Made by a program: the position numbers and the translations under genes
IMG/VR virus record: IMGVR_UViG_2579778730_000001
DNA length: 64,000 nucleotides
Direction: 5' to 3' (one strand)
Source of the DNA: an uncultured virus (IMG/VR IMGVR_UViG_2579778730_000001)
Lineage: Duplodnaviria > Heunggongvirae > Uroviricota > Caudoviricetes
In this document: in pieces, positions 1 through 8,564 of the stretch
How the letters are laid out: each line of letters starts with the position of its first letter
Position numbering within the stretch: the stretch's first letter is position 1
The notes under the pieces: generated by a model
The model's database searches: none
Seen by the model: only the letters and a program-made list of their open reading frames with translations
What the model was told of the DNA's origin: nothing

Positions 1-70
1 TCACTGTCGCTTATAGTTAAGTAAGGTAAAGGAATTTTTCTCGTTACCACGCAATTTACTCGCTGCGCTA

Positions 71-922
71 ATGGCTTTTGTTAACTTGATAATTAACAAT
101 TTTAAGAGTGATGGATACATTATAATGTCCAACAAATTTCTGCTTGATATACCTAAAACATTTTTACTTACTGCCTATACATTTATTTGCGGCTTCACTT
201 ACATATGTGGATTTTGGTATAACTTTAAAATTGATTTGCAAATTGTTTTTAGCTTGCTGTCGCCCCTTGATATAATCAAATCATTTATTATACCTATATC
301 ATCAGCCATCGGCATAGTTATATTACAATTACTAATGAATTTTGTTAGTAACTATGGATACTCAAAAACTGATGATTTAATGAAACAAATTGAAAACATA
401 TACCTAACAGAGGAACCAAAATCTCAAGAACAAAAAAAAAGAAAGCTTTCAAATGTGATCACTTCCCAATTTGGTTTTGTAGCATTGCTTTCTGTCGGTA
501 TAACGATTTTAATTATCTATAAGTTTATTACGACTGAAGAAAGAATGTATTTCAATGTATTTATAATATTTGCAGCAGGCATTTTTGTGCTGACCGGCTT
601 TATTATATTTTGTGTTGATTCAGGGTTTGAGAAGGCTGAAAGATATTTTGTTATAGCTTTTTCCATTTGCATACTACCGGCTATAATTTATTTCATAGGT
701 GGGCATACTGGGAAAAACGCTATTGAAGATGAAAAAGCAATGATTATGATGGACAATAACGCATGCAGTAGCGATCCAAAAGAGCAATATGTTTTACTAT
801 CTCTATATGGTTCAAAAGGGATTAGCGCATCATTAAAAGACCACTCCATCTGTCTATTTGAAGCTGAAAAGACCAGTTTTAAGAGCCGTATGCCTACTCT
901 TCCCCAACAGCTAAGCGAATAA
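71..922 (+). CDS. Multi-pass membrane protein, hypothetical (AT-rich phage cargo); alternative start at 125
   Basis: 283 aa ORF, about 5 hydrophobic segments, soluble C-terminus with two Cys, AT-rich, followed by a terminator. Confidence 0.75.
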   Translation: MAFVNLIINNFKSDGYIIMSNKFLLDIPKTFLLTAYTFICGFTYICGFWYNFKIDLQIVFSLLSPLDIIKSFIIPISSAIGIVILQLLMNFVSNYGYSKTDDLMKQIENIYLTEEPKSQEQKKRKLSNVITSQFGFVALLSVGITILIIYKFITTEERMYFNVFIIFAAGIFVLTGFIIFCVDSGFEKAERYFVIAFSICILPAIIYFIGGHTGKNAIEDEKAMIMMDNNACSSDPKEQYVLLSLYGSKGISASLKDHSICLFEAEKTSFKSRMPTLPQQLSE

Positions 923-984
923 AAAAATAGGATATGTATACAGGAATTTCGGACTCGAGTTCAACCCTAGCCATCTCACCCAAT

Positions 985-1023
985 AAAAGAAAGGGTTACG
1001 CTTAAGCGTAGCCCTTTCTTTTT
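985..1023. terminator. Bidirectional intrinsic terminator
   Basis: aaaagaaagggttacgc-ttaa-gcgtagccctttctttt between convergent ORFs 71..922 and 1093..1404. Confidence 0.85.
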
Positions 1024-1092
1024 GTTCATGGCCACTTCGCGTCCACTCCGTTGGTTAAGTGCAAACAATATACATGCCGCACATCGACGATG

Positions 1093-1404
1093 TTACAATC
1101 CTTTTTTTAATCGCTTGCTGATGGCCTTAGATGCGGCATCACGTTGCATGTCTGACCAGCTTTCATAAGAGGTGTTTTTCGCGATGAAGCTCTCCCATTC
1201 ATCATTAGGAATGGCTTTAAAATCCTCAGCCGATTTAACGTGGAAACCTGACTTTTCGAATAGATCCTCAACCGAAGTAAATGATGAACATTTGCTTAGG
1301 AACTCAGGATTGAACATTTCACCAAATGTTAACTGCGTTGTGCTTCCAATCTCTTCAAGGTTCTTTTTTAACTTACTGATTTGGTGACTAAAACTTTTAG
1401 GCAT
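1093..1404 (-). CDS. Hypothetical protein, 103 aa (phage cargo)
   Basis: ATG preceded by AAGGGG, protein-like composition, flanked by terminators. Confidence 0.75.
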   Translation of the reverse strand: MPKSFSHQISKLKKNLEEIGSTTQLTFGEMFNPEFLSKCSSFTSVEDLFEKSGFHVKSAEDFKAIPNDEWESFIAKNTSYESWSDMQRDAASKAISKRLKKGL

Positions 1405-1550
1405 ATAAAACCCCTTGTTTATAAATGAAAACTAACGGCTTGATATAACGGGGCTATTATATTTTTTTATTTCATCATAAACCATAGCCAAACATGGTTA
1501 AGATCACACTTATGTTTTTTTATGCTCTGCCCTCCGTCAATTCAGACAAT

Positions 1551-1583
1551 AAAAAAAGGACGAATTAACACCTCCTTTTTTTT
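1551..1583. terminator. Probable terminator downstream of the DUF4760-like gene
   Basis: aaaaaaagga...tccttttttt inverted repeat. Confidence 0.5.
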
Positions 1584-1629
1584 AAATTTTATCACCTTAC
1601 CATCTGAAAATGATGCATATTGTTACTAA

Positions 1630-2214
1630 CTAATGCCTGCCTTTTTCTTTGGGGAACGGAAGATTAAACGGCAATCTCCACTCATTTTTGAGGCATTCAT
1701 TACGTCGTTTCATAATCCATCTGTTAGCCAGCCAACAAAAATTGGAATATATTCGTGGATTAACTTTTTGTCGTTCCTCTATGTACGGTTTACAAGCCAC
1801 ATAGAGGTTTATGACAGTGGAAGCATACACTTTGTACAAAAAGCCTTCATCGAAAAGCCCGTGTTTAATAGCATTTCCGCAACGCTCCCATTCATTGAAG
1901 ACCGTCATCAAAGCTCGAGCTTCTTTGGTTTGTCTGACTGAGTTCAATCCCCAATGACTCATTGGTTTTTTTTGTTTTCTAGGATCTTTTTTTAACAAAG
2001 TTAGTATTTCTTGCCAAGCAGCATCGACTTTGTCGCTTCTCTTATAAGAAGCTTCAAAATCTAAGGAGTTCTTTTCGCGAGATGTTTGGCGATTCTTTCT
2101 GATCGTTACCACAGCCACTATAAGAGCAACTATCGCCGCAATAACATTACTGAAGAATGTCGGGCTACTGTCCCAAAGATGAGAAATTATTTCATTCATT
2201 TCAATGAGTTGCAT
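1630..2214 (-). CDS. DUF4760-like protein with N-terminal TM anchor (start 2214 or 2199)
   Basis: TM segment VIAAIVALIVAVVTI plus C-terminal pattern FNEWE..GNAIKHGLFDE...PYIEER....Y.NF.WLANRW that I recognise as DUF4760. Confidence 0.75.
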   Translation of the reverse strand: MQLIEMNEIISHLWDSSPTFFSNVIAAIVALIVAVVTIRKNRQTSREKNSLDFEASYKRSDKVDAAWQEILTLLKKDPRKQKKPMSHWGLNSVRQTKEARALMTVFNEWERCGNAIKHGLFDEGFLYKVYASTVINLYVACKPYIEERQKVNPRIYSNFCWLANRWIMKRRNECLKNEWRLPFNLPFPKEKGRH

Positions 2215-2228
2215 TAGATTAAAAATAC

Positions 2229-2254
2229 AAAAAAGGCGGGGAAAATCCCCACCT
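2229..2254 (-). terminator. Intrinsic terminator between the small ORF and the DUF4760-like gene
   Basis: Minus strand AGGTGGGGA-TTT-TCCCCGCCT followed by TTTTT. Confidence 0.75.
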
Positions 2255-2280
2255 CTCGTCAATTCAGAAAATGAAACATC

Positions 2281-2319
2281 TTAGGATAAGCCCCAATCCT
2301 CTTCACGGAAAGTTTTCAT
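2281..2319 (-). CDS. Small ORF MKTFREEDWGLS (12 aa); in-frame upstream ATG at 2343 would give 20 aa
   Basis: GGAGGAG Shine-Dalgarno (2327-2333) 7 nt before the ATG; TAA at 2281-2283; not in the ORF track. Confidence 0.65.
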   Translation of the reverse strand: MKTFREEDWGLS

Positions 2320-2723
2320 AGTTTTGCTCCTCCAGTTAGTCATTTTTTACTCATAAATCTGTTTGGACGACCTTTATACACTGCATAAGTGACAACCACA
2401 AGCGCTGTACAACCGTTTTCAGTTACTGCTCCAAGTACCGTGACAGTAAGCTATTGGTTCCCGTCACTTTCTAACTTGTTACTAAGCTTAGCAAATGCAA
2501 TTCATCTAGCTAGGATGTTTAAGAAAAATTACATTAGATGATTAATATCAAACACTTAATTATAGCGCGCATTGAATACAGGATCTAGAAAACTGAAAAT
2601 CAGTGAAATTTCTTTCAATCTTTTCAGTTCGTGATTCCCGGCACGCCGCCAGTAGTGGCGCTGGCTGGCGGCCCGGTTTGCAGAAAAACAAAACTGCAAA
2701 ATTTTTGTGATCCAAAACGTGCA

Positions 2724-2742
2724 GGCGGGTGCGGTGTAGTGC
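2724..2742. other. Candidate cos (cohesive end) site
   Basis: GGCGGGTGCGGTGTAGTGC, loosely like the P2 19-nt cos, located between the last tail gene and the cargo/att end as in HP1-type genomes. Confidence 0.4.
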
Positions 2743-2887
2743 CTTTTTTGTCTGTGACGCATTTATTTTGTCGGCGTGTGGCTATGCCAGCGCAGCCAGG
2801 CGGCTGTGATCTGTTTCTTGAGTGAACGGGGGCGTAGGTAGGCTTAAGGCGCTCAGACGACGTTCTACGAAGCCTGACGATGGGTAT

Positions 2888-2909
2888 AAAAAAGCCCGCA
2901 TATGCGGGC
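2888..2909 (-). terminator. Terminator of the tail operon
   Basis: gcccgca-ta-tgcgggc followed by T6 on the minus strand, just after the stop at 2932. Confidence 0.8.
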
Positions 2910-2931
2910 GTTGTGAATGCCTGGGTGATCG

Positions 2932-4629
2932 TCAGGCGATGATGCTCTCATACTTGCTTCTGGTTTGCTGCGCAGCTGAAGCCGTCTGGCTGAATGCGCT
3001 GGCATTGGTAGGTGTGCTGACGCTGGGGTGGCTGTGGCTCGCGCACTGCTGCGCCAGCTGTGCCAGCAAGTCGATGGTATCCAGCATCATGGCAAGAACA
3101 TTAACGCTTTCATTACCAATATGTACCGTTGGCCCCATGACCTGCTGACCACCACTGGCAACGGATTTACGCAGTGCTGCAATCTTTTCTGTCAGCGCGC
3201 CCTGCGTATCAACGGTGATGTTACCGGCCACCGTAGTTGCCTGTTGCCCCGCGATGTCCGTTTCAGCGTCACCCTGTACGCTGGCCAGATATTTACCGGT
3301 GGCCAGCGCGTAATCGCCCGTAACCAGCTGCTGAATTGCTCCGGCCATCAGCGTAGCCGTTCCCAGCACAGTGGTCTTATCCGTAGCCTTAATCGTGGTT
3401 TCACGCGTCACCATCTCCCGCGTTTCAGTATCTGCCGTAACACTGCGGGTCATGGAAGTTTCGCGGATAGCCTGATCGGTTTTGCGTTCCCAGTCCCCTG
3501 CCTGCGTCACGCGCTGTGAAACTTCAGCGCGCTGCTGTTGCAGCTGTTCGCCGGGCTTAACATCCGGCAGGCTGGTGCCATCCGGTACGGTCTGGCGCAC
3601 AAATGGCTTATCGGGGCGGCCACCGGTAAAACCCACTTCTACCAGCGTGCCTTCTGGCGGAAACTGGAACATCCCCGAATCGTTACCTGCCATCGGCACC
3701 GGCAGCGGCACGGCGGTATAAACTGGCGTCGTGCTGTCCGGGTTGCCGTCCGCGTCGAGCAACTGCACATCAACGGCATAGCGCGGGCGGAACGGATCGG
3801 CGAAGTTTCCGCTGCTGGCCGCCTCACTGGGCGCAATCACTCGGGCAAATTTTGGCAGGTGCATCCCGCTGGCCAGCTCAGGGTAGTGGCTTTCAATCTG
3901 ACGCTGTACCGGTGATTTTTGCAGTGGCGCGCCGGTAGCCTTATCGCGAGGCGTCCAGGTTATGGCCATGTTTTCCGCAATCAGGTTGACCTTCGTCAGG
4001 CGCTGACCGTTCACTTCCACGCCTGGCCGCAGTGTCTGGATCATAGGAATGGTCATGCTGTTGCCGCCGGACGTGTCCTGGCTGAACTCATGCGGAATAT
4101 CAACCGGACGCCCGGCAAACAGCGCCTTATCAGCACCACCCACAAATACAGAACCGTCCGGCAGCTGATACCAGACGTAATCCGCGATACCAAAAACCCG
4201 GCCCAGATTATTCAGCAACTGGAATCCCGTGCCGGAATGCGTGAAGTGCGGCACCGGTTTATCACTGTAGGCAGTGTCAGGGACTGTTATGGTCAGGCCG
4301 CTTTGTTCAGTCAGCCAGGCTGCAATCTCGCGAAGCGTCGGATGCTGGAATGAGCAAGGCCACAGTTTTTCAAATACCCCGACCATTTCACGGACGAAAA
4401 GGCGCATGAAACCTTTTCCGGCTGGCTGTGAGCGCTCCACGTAGCCGGTAAACCATCGCAGCATGTGATCGCCGTATCCAATATCAAGGCGCACCACTTT
4501 GCCGGTGTAGTCCTGTTGCGTTTCAGCGGTGATAAATCCACGCCCGGCGGCGCTCAGCTCAAGCACCATATTCACGTCCGCCATATGAACTTCATCACCT
4601 GAAAGGTACAGGCGTTTAATCGGCTTCAT
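2932..4629 (-). CDS. Baseplate hub/spike-like tail protein (HP1 terminal tail gene type)
   Basis: 565 aa, last gene of the tail operon; C-terminal beta-repeat region ending in HSH. Confidence 0.7.
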   Translation of the reverse strand: MKPIKRLYLSGDEVHMADVNMVLELSAAGRGFITAETQQDYTGKVVRLDIGYGDHMLRWFTGYVERSQPAGKGFMRLFVREMVGVFEKLWPCSFQHPTLREIAAWLTEQSGLTITVPDTAYSDKPVPHFTHSGTGFQLLNNLGRVFGIADYVWYQLPDGSVFVGGADKALFAGRPVDIPHEFSQDTSGGNSMTIPMIQTLRPGVEVNGQRLTKVNLIAENMAITWTPRDKATGAPLQKSPVQRQIESHYPELASGMHLPKFARVIAPSEAASSGNFADPFRPRYAVDVQLLDADGNPDSTTPVYTAVPLPVPMAGNDSGMFQFPPEGTLVEVGFTGGRPDKPFVRQTVPDGTSLPDVKPGEQLQQQRAEVSQRVTQAGDWERKTDQAIRETSMTRSVTADTETREMVTRETTIKATDKTTVLGTATLMAGAIQQLVTGDYALATGKYLASVQGDAETDIAGQQATTVAGNITVDTQGALTEKIAALRKSVASGGQQVMGPTVHIGNESVNVLAMMLDTIDLLAQLAQQCASHSHPSVSTPTNASAFSQTASAAQQTRSKYESIIA

Positions 4630-4631
4630 AG

Positions 4632-5171
4632 TTACCCCAGCGCCTCGTTTACGGGCTTCAGCACTTTTTTCTCAAACCATGTCATTTTATCTGCATCCTC
4701 TCCGGCAGCTGCCTGTCCGCCTGCGCCAGCGGCCGTCTGCATCTTGCTGGTTTTGCGACCATTTGCGGCGGCCTCTTTCTTTTCAGGCACGCTGAGATAT
4801 TCAGTCAGCGTGAACGTTACCGCCCAGGACATGCGGCCGTCCTGTTGCGGCGCATCCAGTGTGCCGCTGAATGTCGCTTCACGAAGGTTTACTGCGCGTG
4901 CTACCGAATTGGCCACGCGGTAAACGACACGCCTTCCGGCCGCATCGGTGGCATTGGCCAGCTGAAAAATACGTGTCAGGGTGGCGGCATCTTTAAACGG
5001 AATTTCGCCATTTACGCGCAGCTCTTTGCCCTTGGCACCCTGCTCCGCCTTCGTCGTCGCACTGGTCTGCCCTGACTGGTCTTTATCGGGGAACTGCTGG
5101 CTTATTGTCACGCGCATGTTTTTCAGCGTGATGGCCTCGCCGTTAAGCGCCAGCGTTGCTGTCGTCGTCAT
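4632..5171 (-). CDS. Baseplate/tail protein
   Basis: 179 aa, coupled within the tail operon; HP1-type synteny. Confidence 0.65.
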   Translation of the reverse strand: MTTTATLALNGEAITLKNMRVTISQQFPDKDQSGQTSATTKAEQGAKGKELRVNGEIPFKDAATLTRIFQLANATDAAGRRVVYRVANSVARAVNLREATFSGTLDAPQQDGRMSWAVTFTLTEYLSVPEKKEAAANGRKTSKMQTAAGAGGQAAAGEDADKMTWFEKKVLKPVNEALG

Positions 5172-5862
5172 GGATAATGCTCCTGATACCGCTTAAGTCC
5201 TTGCCAGCCAGCATAATGGCGGCGCAGTAGACGGATGATCGGGCCGGTATGCCGCTCATCAACTGACGGAGAATATCCGCAGCGTTTCCGCTTCCGGTAA
5301 ATACCCAGCCCCGCGCAGACTTTGCGGACACGTCGCCCGCACCGGCGGCAATATCAGCCATCAGGCTGACGCGCTTTTCAATAAATTCGGTCAGGCTTTT
5401 TTTAAGGTCATCCATACTCATGGCTTTGGCCTGGCCCGCTTTTGCGACAGCGGCCGCAGCGCTAACGGCTCTCGCCGTAGGAACCGAAAGCGGAAGCGTT
5501 GCCCCCGGCCCGCCTGCGACCTTTGCGGGCTTCTGCATTTTCACGGTGGCAAGCTCTGCTGACGAACGGGCAAGGCGGCTTACCTGCGTAAACGCCGGGA
5601 CTGGAAAGACGTCGGTTAACGGGTCAAGGCGTGATAAAAATTCGTCCTGGGTCTGCCCGGTGGCCAGCAGGATCACCACGTCCGTCTTGCCGGTTACGCT
5701 TGCCAGCTTTTCACCCAGCCACGCAATGGCGTTGGCCGGACTAAGATATGCCCCGTTATCAGTTTGCTGGCCCAGTCCGTATACCCACGGATGAGCAGCC
5801 GTCATCGAGCAGTTGAGCGCCGGGAATTCTCCCGGCAAGGCCAGTTTCGCTTCACGCCACAT
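5143..5862 (-). CDS. Tail/baseplate-associated protein
   Basis: 239 aa, overlaps both neighbours; HP1-type synteny. Confidence 0.6.
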   Translation of the reverse strand: MWREAKLALPGEFPALNCSMTAAHPWVYGLGQQTDNGAYLSPANAIAWLGEKLASVTGKTDVVILLATGQTQDEFLSRLDPLTDVFPVPAFTQVSRLARSSAELATVKMQKPAKVAGGPGATLPLSVPTARAVSAAAAVAKAGQAKAMSMDDLKKSLTEFIEKRVSLMADIAAGAGDVSAKSARGWVFTGSGNAADILRQLMSGIPARSSVYCAAIMLAGKDLSGIRSIIHDDDSNAGA

Positions 5863-6439
5863 TCACCGGCTCCACAGGCCAGGCAATATCCGGCGCATTA
5901 CTGGTATCAACACGGCTAAGCAGAACGCGATATTTTTTCATTTCCCCAAGCAGCGCAATTTCTTCATCCGTGGCCATATCCAGCTCTACCGCATCCTGTA
6001 ACGGTGCGATGGTGTCATTTGCCACTTTGAGCATTTCCGCCTTCTGGTTTTCGGCTGATTCAACAAGCGCCTGACGCTCGGCCATGTCGTCTTTAATCCA
6101 GGCACTGCCGTCCCATTTTTCAAACGCACCGCCGGGGGCGATACCGGTTGTGCCGGGGGGAAGCGGGCCGGGTTCAGTGATGTAAATTTCCTGCCCGCTG
6201 GAAACGTCATATACGACTGTGCCGCGATGGTCTTCATGTTCTGACCAGGCCTGCTCTGCGTCGTCAAAAATCGCCACAAAACCGCGCTTAGCCGCAGGTG
6301 GTGAAACAGTGGTGCAGTGCGCTGGCAGACCGGTGAAAGGCTGAATATAGGCATCCCCTTCCCCGATAAATTCTTTTGTATCAGCCCGCAGATTGAAAAC
6401 AGTGATAGTGCGGGGCTTATTCGCCATTTTGAAGGTCAT
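5852..6439 (-). CDS. tfa: Tail fibre assembly chaperone (lambda Tfa-like)
   Basis: MTFKM..RTITVFNL..EDHRG...LQDAVELDMAT...YRVLLSRVDTS.APDI.WP pattern. Confidence 0.9.
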   Translation of the reverse strand: MTFKMANKPRTITVFNLRADTKEFIGEGDAYIQPFTGLPAHCTTVSPPAAKRGFVAIFDDAEQAWSEHEDHRGTVVYDVSSGQEIYITEPGPLPPGTTGIAPGGAFEKWDGSAWIKDDMAERQALVESAENQKAEMLKVANDTIAPLQDAVELDMATDEEIALLGEMKKYRVLLSRVDTSNAPDIAWPVEPVNVA

Positions 6440-7959
6440 TATGCGAGTCTCACGATGTAGTTGAATGCAATGTTTTTAACGGTGGTTTCTGCGTTACCTG
6501 CTGCCGCAACGGTAATGGCGTGCGTGTGCGCACCGATTGCCACAGAATGGGTATGCGCGCCGATAGCAACGGTGTGCGCATGAGCGCCTGCACTGGTCGT
6601 TGTAGCGTTATTGGAGCCACTGTGATAACCGCTCCCAAGTGTCCCCGCTCCCCTGCTGCTCCCCGTCCTGTCGGTATATCTGTGTGTATGCGCCCCGGTG
6701 TTATTGGTTGATTTCGTGCCGTAATCGAAAGACGACGTTGTTTTCGTCCCAAGATCGGTACTGGCTGCGGTGGCGGTATGTGTGTGTGATTTGTTGCCAT
6801 CGGCTTCAGCACTCAGCACTTTGCGTCCGTCCGGCCGCCCCTTGACGGTCTGGCCGCGCATGTCGGGGATCACACCATCCGGGTATGCCGTGGCCAGTAA
6901 CGGATAAACGCTTTTATCAAAACTCTGACCCTGCATTACCGCCCATTTCGGCGGGGCCACATCTGTTGGCCACGGCACCGGTACACCCACGGGCAGGACG
7001 TCATTTACACCCTGCACGGCAAGTTCACTGAGTCCAAGATTCTGGCGCGCCAGGGCTTTGTCGCCTACGTCATTCAGGTTCGCGTCTTTTCGCAGATAGT
7101 CGCTGACTGACTGCTGATCGCTGAGGCTACCCTTAGGCCGCAGATCCGTAATTTTTCCGCTGGCGTCGATACTGGCTACCGCAAACACAAAATGTTGCTC
7201 ACCACCCTGAACATAATTTTCCAGGGTATCAGCTACGGTGATTTTGCTCTGAACCGCCCAGGCGCTGGTGAGCGCGCCACGCCAGCACACATCCAGCCAG
7301 ACCTTAACTGCTTTGGCGGGTGCCGCAATTTTCAGATCGGCAGCCAGCTGCGCACGCAGTCCGGCGACGTAGCCCGCGCCTTTTGTCACGCTATACTGGG
7401 TGCCGCTTTTCCTGACAAGATAGCCATCCCCGATAAACGCAGCCGGGCCGTAAATATCCATATTCTCAGTACGCTGGCGCTCATCCATACCCGTCATGCG
7501 GGCAGTGAAATCAATCTGCCACGTTTCTGCCGGGGTATTGATTGCCGTCTCCGCTGCTGCACCGTTGAACTCAAGTAAAAAAGAGCGGGTAAGCACATTT
7601 CCCTGCTGCCCTGATGCTGTTTTCAGCTTCTGCTGCTCCGGGGCATGAACAACCATCGCCAGTACACCGCTGGCCTTGTTAACCAGTCCAACCCAGTTAA
7701 ACGAAAAATCGCCCACATCCGCCCCAAGCACCACAGAGTATGCAACGGCATTTTCGTTAACGATGCCGCTCCGCGACACTGCCTGCCGGTGAACAATCTG
7801 CGCCCCGCTCGGGATAGTTTCATCGCGACTAATGGGCGCGGATGGGTCCAGACCCGGCACCAGGGCAAAAACAAACTCATCCAGCGTAACCGGCTCATTA
7901 CTGAGACTCTGGCTGGCTTTCCACTGTTCGAAAGCGAAGGTAATCGCAGTCTGTGACAT
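6439..7959 (-). CDS. Tail fibre protein with collar domain and lambda Stf/T4 gp37-like His-box tip
   Basis: Start [16 protein letters not shown] collar; HTH repeats; ends [12 protein letters not shown]. Confidence 0.9.
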
Positions 7960-7961
7960 AT

Positions 7962-8564
7962 CTACTCCTGGAGGCTGGCGCTGAACGTCACGCTGCCGCT
8001 TTCTGTTTCGGCCAGTCGGGCCGGATAACACACGTACTCACCCTGATCCCAGCCGGCACGCATCGCCAGGCGGTCAGAGGTGATAACTTCAAACTGATAC
8101 CGGCGGCACGTCCTGCCGTACTGCCGGACTATCTGAATCATCAGCTGGGTATTTTCTGCAACCTGGCTGTCTGTCACGCGAACCAGAATTACGTCCCAGT
8201 CGATGCCGGGCTGACGCTCCAGCAGCTCAACATAACCAATTCCCAGGCGCTCAAAGATTGCTATGAAACCGGCAACTGAACCGGCATCAGCCGCGTTAAC
8301 AAAGGCATACGCCACCCGCTTGCGAAACAAAGCCAGCGGCTCACCGTCAAACCGGGTAATGTCGCGGTCATACGCGATGAGGTGCAGCAGCGGTTCAGCA
8401 CAGGTCAGCGGATCAAGCTGGCTGGCAGGCCATGTGATCCAGCCGTAAACGTCACGCCAGAATTTCCGGGCGGCATTCAGAAGTTTTTTGGGTTCGCCGT
8501 TATCCATCCAGAACGGCAGCACCAGTCCGGCCAGTTTTTTCAGGAAATCAGGCATTTTCGACAC
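7962..8564 (-). CDS. Phage tail protein (P2 gpI-like baseplate wedge)
   Basis: [19 protein letters not shown] motif; follows baseplate J. Confidence 0.8.

Follow-up and report, generated by a model that had tools for sequence, protein, structure and literature searches.

What does a gene of 12 codons do directly ahead of a membrane-protein gene at the end of a prophage? The question is raised by a DNA stretch of 64,000 nucleotides (nt) from an uncultured virus (IMG/VR IMGVR_UViG_2579778730_000001), hereafter the window. A first-pass annotation of the window had pointed to a small open reading frame (ORF), an intrinsic terminator and a gene encoding a DUF4760 (PF15956) protein in succession on the minus strand. 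In the present study, we found that this micro-ORF preceded the DUF4760 gene at every assessable related locus, that it was conserved at the amino-acid level, and that copies of it stood alone in phages in which DUF4760 was not found. Our leading interpretation, which we hold tentatively and rate a little short of probable, is that the two genes form a prophage cargo module in which the peptide may act in trans, like an antitoxin, to keep its cognate DUF4760 protein inactive.

Layout of the module

The minus-strand layout could be read directly from the sequence, and the coordinates given earlier were off by only a base or two. The features are as follows.

2373..2401, minus strand: predicted sigma-70-type promoter, TTGTGG (2401-2396), 17 nt, TATAAA (2378-2373); from reading the sequence
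2327..2333, minus strand: Shine-Dalgarno (SD) site GGAGGAG, with the ATG 7 nt downstream; from reading the sequence
2281..2319, minus strand: 12-codon ORF plus TAA, with the core E-E-[D/N]-W three residues from the peptide end; from reading the sequence
2221..2257, minus strand: intrinsic terminator, a 12-pair stem with a 3-nt loop (2257-2231) and a T-rich tail; from a hairpin scan and folding
1630..2199, minus strand: DUF4760 gene, 189 residues from the conserved ATG at 2199 or 194 residues from the ATG at 2214

The promoter proposed by the first-pass annotation was present at 2401-2373, and its -10 element was invariant and its -35 element nearly so in eight of nine aligned enterobacterial relatives. 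A generic consensus scan did not list this promoter, whose -35 element matches three of six consensus positions. The transcription start of the module would lie where the predicted promoter places it. A short block just downstream of the -10 element (2360-2372, minus strand) was also kept across the relatives (alignment A3); in several of them it is nearly palindromic about the predicted start, and it may be an operator.

An in-frame ATG at 2343, upstream of the 12-codon ORF, had no SD site and was not conserved. The terminator stem began 23 nt past the stop codon of the small ORF, contained six G-C pairs among its 12, and had a folding energy of -18.4 kcal/mol; the region 1000-3000 held five terminator-like sites, compared with 2.1 +/- 1.6 in shuffled sequences. 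The DUF4760 gene had no recognisable SD site in the window, and its homologues began at the position of the second ATG (2199).

Conservation of the micro-ORF upstream of DUF4760

Relatives of the DUF4760 protein were drawn from viral contigs (28 loci), species genomes (4 loci) and metagenomes (24 loci), together with ORF10a of Vibrio phage E8498 from the GenBank phages. The DUF4760 frame was located by profile, and the upstream DNA was then scanned for an SD site and an ATG-initiated ORF containing [E/D]-[E/D]-x-W. The protein was encoded at 60 loci, of which 55 had at least 200 nt of upstream sequence and could be assessed; the other five ended at a contig edge. The first-pass annotation had named a conserved upstream small ORF among DUF4760 homologues as a test of its proposal. 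According to the scan, an SD site followed by an ATG-initiated ORF of 9-21 codons with the core motif was present in 55 of 55 assessable loci, which collapsed to 35 distinct peptides in 39 DNA versions. The hosts of the linked loci ranged over enterobacteria, Vibrio (phage E8498), Halomonadaceae and Alteromonadales.

The surrounding architecture was retained as well. An SD-like site lay 3-11 nt ahead of the small ORF at every tabulated locus, a hairpin with a T tract followed 6-35 nt past its stop codon, and the DUF4760 gene started 7-43 nt past the terminator. The terminator stem was kept among relatives through compensatory changes. The small ORF was single in all tabulated loci of this subfamily except L024, which had two. 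We also scanned the genome containing the window (4.26 Mb; 8.5 Mb over both strands) for an SD site, an ATG, at most 25 codons, the core motif and a stop within 10 codons. Only the present ORF was returned, and chance is therefore excluded as its origin; the bare 12-nt motif occurred five times in the same genome.

The distinct peptides were aligned on the Trp residue, which was found in 35 of 35. Position -2 from Trp was Glu in all 35, and position -3 was Glu in 32 and Asp in three. Position -1 was occupied by Asp (18), Asn (12), Leu (4) or Lys (1), position +1 by Gly (18), Asp (12) or another residue (5), and position -5 was usually hydrophobic or aromatic, while between one and six residues separated Trp from the stop codon. 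The silent positions varied: the second Glu codon was GAG in 21 and GAA in 18 cases, and the Asp codon was GAT in 16 and GAC in 6. Because Glu and Trp were invariant in all 35 peptides while synonymous third positions varied, selection appears to act on the peptide and not on the RNA. That standard gene callers would miss such a peptide had also been anticipated, and it was indeed unannotated in the RefSeq genome of E. coli SCU-101, in Vibrio phage E8498 and in PhiM1.

Relation to DUF4760 proteins of the P2 hotspot and to other subfamilies

DUF4760 proteins have been listed in the gpQ-gpA anti-phage hotspot of P2-like prophages, which was surveyed over 18,150 loci (Rousset et al. 2022, PMC9122126). 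In Table S5B of that study, "DUF4760" appears as system #3, a protein with four transmembrane (TM) segments and 1102 occurrences, and as system #82, with one TM segment and 44 occurrences. The accessible part of PMC9122126 mentions no micro-ORF or terminator and no phenotype for the DUF4760 systems. As far as that part allows a comparison, the protein of system #82 corresponds to the E. coli relative at L017-L020, which begins with the same residues. The L017-L020 protein was 47% identical to the window protein over residues 3-180 and shared both of the invariant blocks described below. Both are prophage cargo proteins with a single membrane helix; the window module lies at the end of the tail genes beside tRNA(CAT), whereas system #82 lies between gpQ (portal) and gpA (replication).

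Three genomes of the window genome's family that matched the subfamily profile weakly carried the DUF4760 type of system #3. In all three, an SD site and a micro-ORF preceded a hairpin; the micro-ORF had 10-15 codons and carried another motif, of an acidic-aromatic-Gly type. In a further subfamily, two tandem copies of an 8-codon ORF of another sequence preceded a terminator, and a relative with an 83% identical protein retained them apart from one synonymous change. Other subfamilies thus carry other micro-ORFs, so the peptide type follows the protein type, and peptide and protein diversify together. Among 24 distant family members from the class sample, inspected by eye only, the layout was seen in at least two and was uncertain in one, with no obvious sign of it in the remainder; L049 and L050, both among the 24, belong to genomes flagged as unpublished. 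A single-protein locus search with L035 gave no match.

Free-standing micro-ORFs in phages

Viral contigs were scanned with DNA patterns written from the codons of the motif. The pattern that placed Arg ahead of the core and Gly behind it occurred in 45 stretches, and all small-ORF matches with a start codon preceded DUF4760. The pattern with Asn before the core occurred in at least 119 stretches, 80 of which were examined: two small-ORF matches preceded DUF4760, and eight more lay in ORFs of 8-12 codons with no DUF4760 within 900 nt, six of these eight having an SD-like site. An exact 21-nt pattern covering the last six residues and TAA gave 15 matches, compared with none for a control in which the last two residues were swapped. 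Six of the 15 were known DUF4760 loci, and nine were free-standing in at least six lineages. The free-standing micro-ORFs with the same core had 8-25 codons.

To determine whether DUF4760 was encoded elsewhere on the same molecules, ten whole contigs with a free-standing micro-ORF were searched for PF15956. None of the ten gave a match; their estimated completeness was 84, 100, 100, 100, 100, 60, 100, 6, 96 and 100%, that is, at least 90% for seven of them. The same search did recover the family from two genomes that encode it, the window's own and that of E. coli SCU-101.

The free-standing copies stood in varied contexts. One lay behind its own promoter and was followed by a terminator and a fresh promoter; another, in a provirus, lay ahead of the terminase genes and overlapped the stop codon of an Rz-like spanin gene. 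Others were located between the polynucleotide kinase and RNA polymerase genes of a phiKMV-like phage, beside the tRNA genes of Escherichia phage Av-05, and, as two variants in tandem, on one contig fragment. Several had neither a terminator nor a downstream gene to regulate.

An rV5-like coliphage region with such a copy was found in 117 GenBank records; query coverage was 80% or higher in 116 of them, and identity was 90% or higher in nearly all. In ECP2303, RudolfGeigy, V18 and FFH2, a host-type promoter, an SD site and the 8-codon ORF were kept in four of four, with one synonymous difference. The ORF was unannotated in three of these phages, and ECP2303 annotates a longer in-frame coding sequence across it. 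The last six residues of the encoded peptide are identical to those of the peptide ahead of DUF4760 in P2-like prophages of E. coli. The isolation host listed for RudolfGeigy is E. coli K-12, and the place is Basel.

Pectobacterium phage Khlen also carried a free-standing copy, and PhiM1, PP90 and Slant were 97-99% identical there. At the position of the Khlen/PhiM1 micro-ORF, Momine, Peat1 and Rambam had 8-codon ORFs of two other sequences (about 590-620 in L241 and L243; about 730-760 in L242), which suggests that the content of this very small site changes from one related phage to another. A GenBank search with the L235 region matched only a 37-nt terminator. In two phage lineages, at L235 (3700-3840) and L239 (about 4012-4030), the gene ahead of the micro-ORF ends in an acidic-aromatic tail like that of single-strand-binding proteins; this may be fortuitous, or it may mean that the peptides imitate such tails.

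Folding of the leader RNA

The first-pass annotation had offered two mechanisms for the module, namely a peptide that holds a membrane effector in check and a translation-coupled attenuator. The order of a translated leader ORF, an intrinsic terminator and a downstream gene, as in an attenuator, was indeed apparent from the sequence. We folded each leader with and without the 3' arm of the terminator, and the best duplex of the SD-ORF-spacer region with the terminator 5' arm was scored against 300 shuffles. No conserved antiterminator was found in these duplexes (mean z -0.15; one of 28 loci below -2), and their energies of +1.2 to -12.6 kcal/mol compared with -11 to -20 kcal/mol for the terminators. 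The leader folds without the 3' arm likewise showed no recurrent pairing partner.

Pairing between the motif codons and the spacer was no better than in shuffles (mean z -0.1; three of 26 loci below -1.5). A hairpin between the Glu/Asp codons and the spacer was considered as a cause of the motif conservation and was rejected, as it occurred in few loci (L016, L021 and L025) and was not general. The distance from the Trp codon to the stem varied from roughly 22 to 56 nt across loci, and a ribosome at the stop codon of the small ORF would not reach the terminator stem. There was no run of codons for a sensed amino acid: each peptide had one Trp and two Glu, and the downstream gene was unlinked to these amino acids. 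An Rfam search of positions 1-6000 assigned no family to the leader; the best match, L20_leader, reached 22.9 bits against a gathering score of 58.7 and owed its score to the terminator alone. As no conserved antiterminator emerged, these predictions do not support a classical or steric attenuator; a more subtle influence of the ribosome, of the kind described for the microcin C operon (PMC4231749), may still act here. Of the two proposed mechanisms, the attenuator thus lost ground, and the peptide-partner mechanism gained indirectly from the free-standing peptide genes in phages without DUF4760.

The DUF4760 protein

The window protein matched the DUF4760 profile at 111.8 bits (cut-off 25; E 4e-32) over positions 2-141 of 141. 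It belonged to PHROG 2284, "unknown function", and all of its named homologues were "DUF4760 domain-containing" or "hypothetical". PADLOC contained no model for the three cargo proteins, DUF4760 included. The earlier statement that DUF4760 has no assigned function therefore agrees with PADLOC, the PHROGs and the literature searched. In a library of 50%-identity representatives, 874 clusters belonged to the family at an E-value of 0.001 or better. In one 425-residue member (P0057), a complete DUF4760 unit is duplicated in tandem, and both copies have a membrane helix of their own.

An alignment of 34 homologues contained two invariant blocks, at residues 45-58 and 107-115. The AlphaFold (AF2) model built from these homologues was all-helical, with a mean predicted local distance difference test (pLDDT) score of 83.3 and a predicted template modelling (pTM) score of 0.66. 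In the model, a long hydrophobic N-terminal helix, expected to be the single membrane helix, was followed by basic residues and a helical domain; given these basic residues, the domain should face the cytoplasm. The core motif of the peptide was not fused inside any of 203 DUF4760 proteins.

Foldseek comparison of the model with the PDB gave nothing at E 0.001 or better, and the sequence profile found nothing among PDB sequences. A search of BFVD returned one unnamed viral protein (E 2.5e-4). Pfam, Foldseek and the sequence profile gave no ToxN-like match. With an exhaustive fold aligner (VIA-align, 48,161 chains), the top three matches were EP domains of the EDS1 family, namely 8zf0_C (Z 10.3, root-mean-square deviation 3.4, 123 residues aligned), 7xey_B (Z 10.1, root-mean-square deviation 3.9, 127 residues aligned) and 4nfu_A (Z 8.0), with 123-181 residues aligned over the three; helical models may reach Z 13-14 by chance with this aligner. 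GST C-terminal domains came next (Z 7.3 or less). The likeness to the plant EDS1/PAD4 EP domain is one of fold, at an identity of 8-9%, and the window protein has neither the lipase-like domain nor the partner of EDS1/PAD4. The modelled resemblance is therefore only a lead and does not establish membership.

Genomic setting and distribution

Three further features frame the module.

2894..2909, minus strand: terminator closing the tail/baseplate operon, upstream of the module; from a terminator scan
2257..2276, no strand assigned: upstream copy of a 20-nt direct repeat, just ahead of the terminator stem; from a repeat search
1535..1554, no strand assigned: downstream copy of the repeat, just past the DUF4760 gene; from a repeat search

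The minus-strand genes at 2932-8564 encode phage baseplate, tail-fibre and tail-fibre-assembly proteins, and the baseplate gene (2932-4629) matched PHROG 2258 at E 6.5e-266. The GC content was 0.30-0.43 across 1-2800, compared with 0.55-0.60 in the tail genes. A tRNA(CAT) gene lay 217 nt to the left of the first base of the window and was preceded by UDG, rpoD and dnaG. The drop in GC, the operon-end terminator and the adjoining tRNA(CAT) place the module in low-GC cargo DNA at the prophage end, flanked by the last structural gene and the attachment-side tRNA, which confirms the "cargo slot" of the first-pass annotation.

The copies of the direct repeat were 90% identical and 722 nt apart, and they bracket the terminator and the DUF4760 gene. 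The bases following the downstream copy resembled the start of the terminator stem. The repeat could be what is left of a second module, or a joint at which recombination exchanges cassettes.

Two other ORFs shared the cargo region. A 103-codon ORF (1093-1404, minus strand) matched only positions 286-382 of the 395 of PHROG 2211, of unknown function, and is probably the truncated leftover of a larger cargo gene. A 283-codon ORF on the opposite strand (71-922, plus) encodes a multi-pass membrane protein and is very AT-rich (GC about 0.30); it gave nothing above the Pfam cut-off and no PADLOC or PHROG match, and is another unexplained cargo gene. Within the tail-fibre-assembly gene, a partial Rfam match to IS009 (5898-6000, minus strand; 46.9 bits against a gathering score of 117), clipped by the end of the searched stretch (1-6000), probably reflects coding sequence and not an RNA gene.

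The module was sporadic. Among 201 genomes of the window genome's family, the subfamily profile matched strongly only in the window's genome; three further genomes matched weakly, and the other genome of the same genus had no match. Across the class, PF15956 was present in 18 of 401 sampled genomes, a tally that includes two weak matches in genomes flagged as unpublished (G141 and G308). Megablast of 1000-2950 found no match among E. coli genomes or GenBank phages, and the L010-type module had no match in E. coli genomes. The E. coli type of system #82 was present in 15 of 5426 complete E. coli genomes; in one example it lay between the portal and replication genes, beside ParM-type partition genes.

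Discussion

The dependence between the two genes was one-way: none of the 55 subfamily loci lacked the small ORF, and the micro-ORF occurred on contigs in which PF15956 was not found. Since the protein does not occur without the peptide and the peptide occurs without the protein, this pattern favours a toxin-antitoxin (TA)-like pair. The layout would suit such a pair, with one predicted promoter, a strong SD site on the small ORF, a terminator, and a weak or absent SD site on DUF4760. We propose that the micro-gene (12 codons here and 9-21 in relatives) is transcribed from a constitutive promoter and translated well, that most transcripts would stop at the strong terminator, and that a minority would read through into a DUF4760 gene without a good ribosome-binding site. 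The strong SD site, the terminator and the poor ribosome-binding site of DUF4760 therefore suggest much peptide and little membrane protein, a ratio that we infer. The peptide would act in trans on the cytoplasmic helical domain of the cognate DUF4760 protein, most likely keeping it inactive. If the supply of peptide failed, for example because host expression was shut off by an infecting phage, the released membrane protein would harm the cell or that phage, which would amount to abortive infection or exclusion. Virulent phages carrying the micro-gene alone would then supply the antidote themselves.

Two documented systems resemble this arrangement. In type III TA/abortive infection systems (ToxIN, TenpIN and CptIN), the portions of PMC5086642 and PMC3475682 available to us describe one promoter, an antitoxin, a Rho-independent terminator and a toxin; the terminator is thought to hold the antitoxin in excess, and phages escape via antitoxin mimics (PMC5086642). 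The window module has a promoter, an upstream element, a terminator and an effector gene in the same order. The upstream element here is a 9-21-codon ORF conserved as amino acids, in contrast to the tandem RNA repeats of type III systems, and the downstream gene encodes a one-helix membrane protein with an all-helical domain and not a ToxN-type endoribonuclease. Toxicity and neutralisation belong to the type III systems, while the window module is known from its sequence. By analogy, both the layout and the phage-borne mimics lend support to the proposed antidote, and the position of the E. coli relatives in the P2 gpQ-gpA hotspot would be the right one for defence. The other system is microcin C, in which, according to the accessible part of PMC4231749, ribosome binding to the 7-codon mccA ORF controls the following terminator: the terminator is attenuated by upstream RNA and regains its function once a ribosome binds, and mccA-terminator-mccB yields an abundant short transcript and minor read-through. 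A few-codon gene followed by an intrinsic terminator is common to both. MccB differs in being an adenylating enzyme with MccA as its substrate, and no competing RNA structure was detected in the window module.

Several points weigh against the antidote interpretation. Peptides of 8-12 residues are usually short-lived, and few serve as stable ligands. The loci are related to one another, and at least six contigs are represented in two collections, which means that 55 of 55 overstates their independence. In addition, the small ORF was defined by the same motif and then counted, an objection that the genome scan and the swapped-residue control answer in part. Among five aligned phiKMV-like Pectobacterium phages, the motif was kept in two (Khlen and PhiM1); in the other three (Rambam, Momine and Peat1) the position is taken by an 8-codon ORF that differs in sequence, which makes this lineage a weaker case. 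The best fold matches of the DUF4760 model bind small nucleotides, which could indicate a ligand other than a peptide. PADLOC has no model for the protein, and PMC9122126, in its accessible part, gives no DUF4760 phenotype; the proposed binding, toxicity and defence are drawn from sequence patterns and analogy.

A cis-acting leader or arrest peptide, in which the nascent peptide or ribosome occupancy tunes the terminator and turns on DUF4760 under translation stress, is in our estimate an unlikely explanation. Leader-peptide attenuators of the trpL, hisL and pheL type and arrest peptides have a short ORF, a terminator and a regulated gene, and the order of the module is that of an attenuator. 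Its conservation lies near the C-terminus of the peptide, as in arrest peptides, and the gap between stop and stem is held within 6-35 nt; the mccA precedent, as given in the accessible part of PMC4231749, shows that a ribosome on a 7-codon ORF can control a terminator. Against this, the module differs from the attenuators in showing no conserved antiterminator and no sensed-codon run and in conserving the peptide sequence itself. The Trp-to-stem distance ranges from about 22 to 56 nt, and the stem is out of reach for a ribosome at the stop codon. The same peptide gene is also found with nothing behind it to terminate or regulate, and the peptide differs among DUF4760 subfamilies though the ribosome tunnel is identical. 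The free-standing copies, in at least six phage lineages without DUF4760, would equally suit a peptide with its own host or phage target unrelated to DUF4760, the latter being co-transcribed or working alongside; the acidic-aromatic make-up resembles short protein-tail motifs, and in one lineage the micro-ORF follows a gene with such a tail. We regard this explanation, too, as improbable, to about the same degree, since the strict linkage in 55 of 55 loci from Vibrio to Halomonadaceae and the tracking of DUF4760 subfamily by peptide type would not be expected of functionally unrelated genes.

Two further explanations seem very improbable. The peptide might be a substrate that DUF4760 modifies, exports or guards against, with the terminator providing substrate in excess; the layout and stoichiometry match the microcin C operon as described in the accessible part of PMC4231749, and the charged residues that abound in the two invariant blocks could make up an active site. 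Yet the peptide has no export signal, no enzyme or transporter domain was recognised by Pfam, Foldseek or sequence profile, the one to six residues past the core argue against a defined C-terminal modification, and virulent phages carry free-standing copies without any partner enzyme. The short terminated transcript might instead be a regulatory RNA with an incidental or secondary ORF, as the expected promoter-to-terminator RNA of about 140 nt is of typical small-RNA size. This is equally remote, because conservation tracks codons and not base pairs, there is no Rfam family match, and the sequence outside the ORF and terminator diverges among relatives.

The favoured antidote interpretation can be extended, although we consider the extension possible but rather doubtful. 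Peptides of 8-21 residues might be the antidotes of a new, widespread class of phage-borne TA/abortive infection systems with DUF4760 effectors, possibly distant relatives of EDS1/PAD4 EP domains, and virulent phages (rV5-like, PhiM1) might carry 8-codon anti-defence genes. If true, these would be among the shortest functional genes.

The protein family was already listed in PMC9122126; what is new here, relative to the accessible part of that paper, is the peptide gene and its free-standing copies in DUF4760-less phages. We found no description of the peptide in the literature with DUF4760, PF15956 or motif strings, and PMC13586616 contained none of DUF4760, leader peptide or terminator. According to Table S5B of PMC9122126, DUF4760 is among the commonest occupants of the P2 hotspot (1102 + 44 of 18,150 loci). 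It has been catalogued as a single gene, and here it is paired with an unannotated micro-gene that virulent phages carry alone. An orphan family thereby becomes a testable two-part system, alongside an 8-codon phage gene family that is invisible to annotation pipelines. If the antidote interpretation is true, the module would represent a peptide counterpart of the RNA-antitoxin systems, and the free-standing copies a new kind of phage counter-defence.

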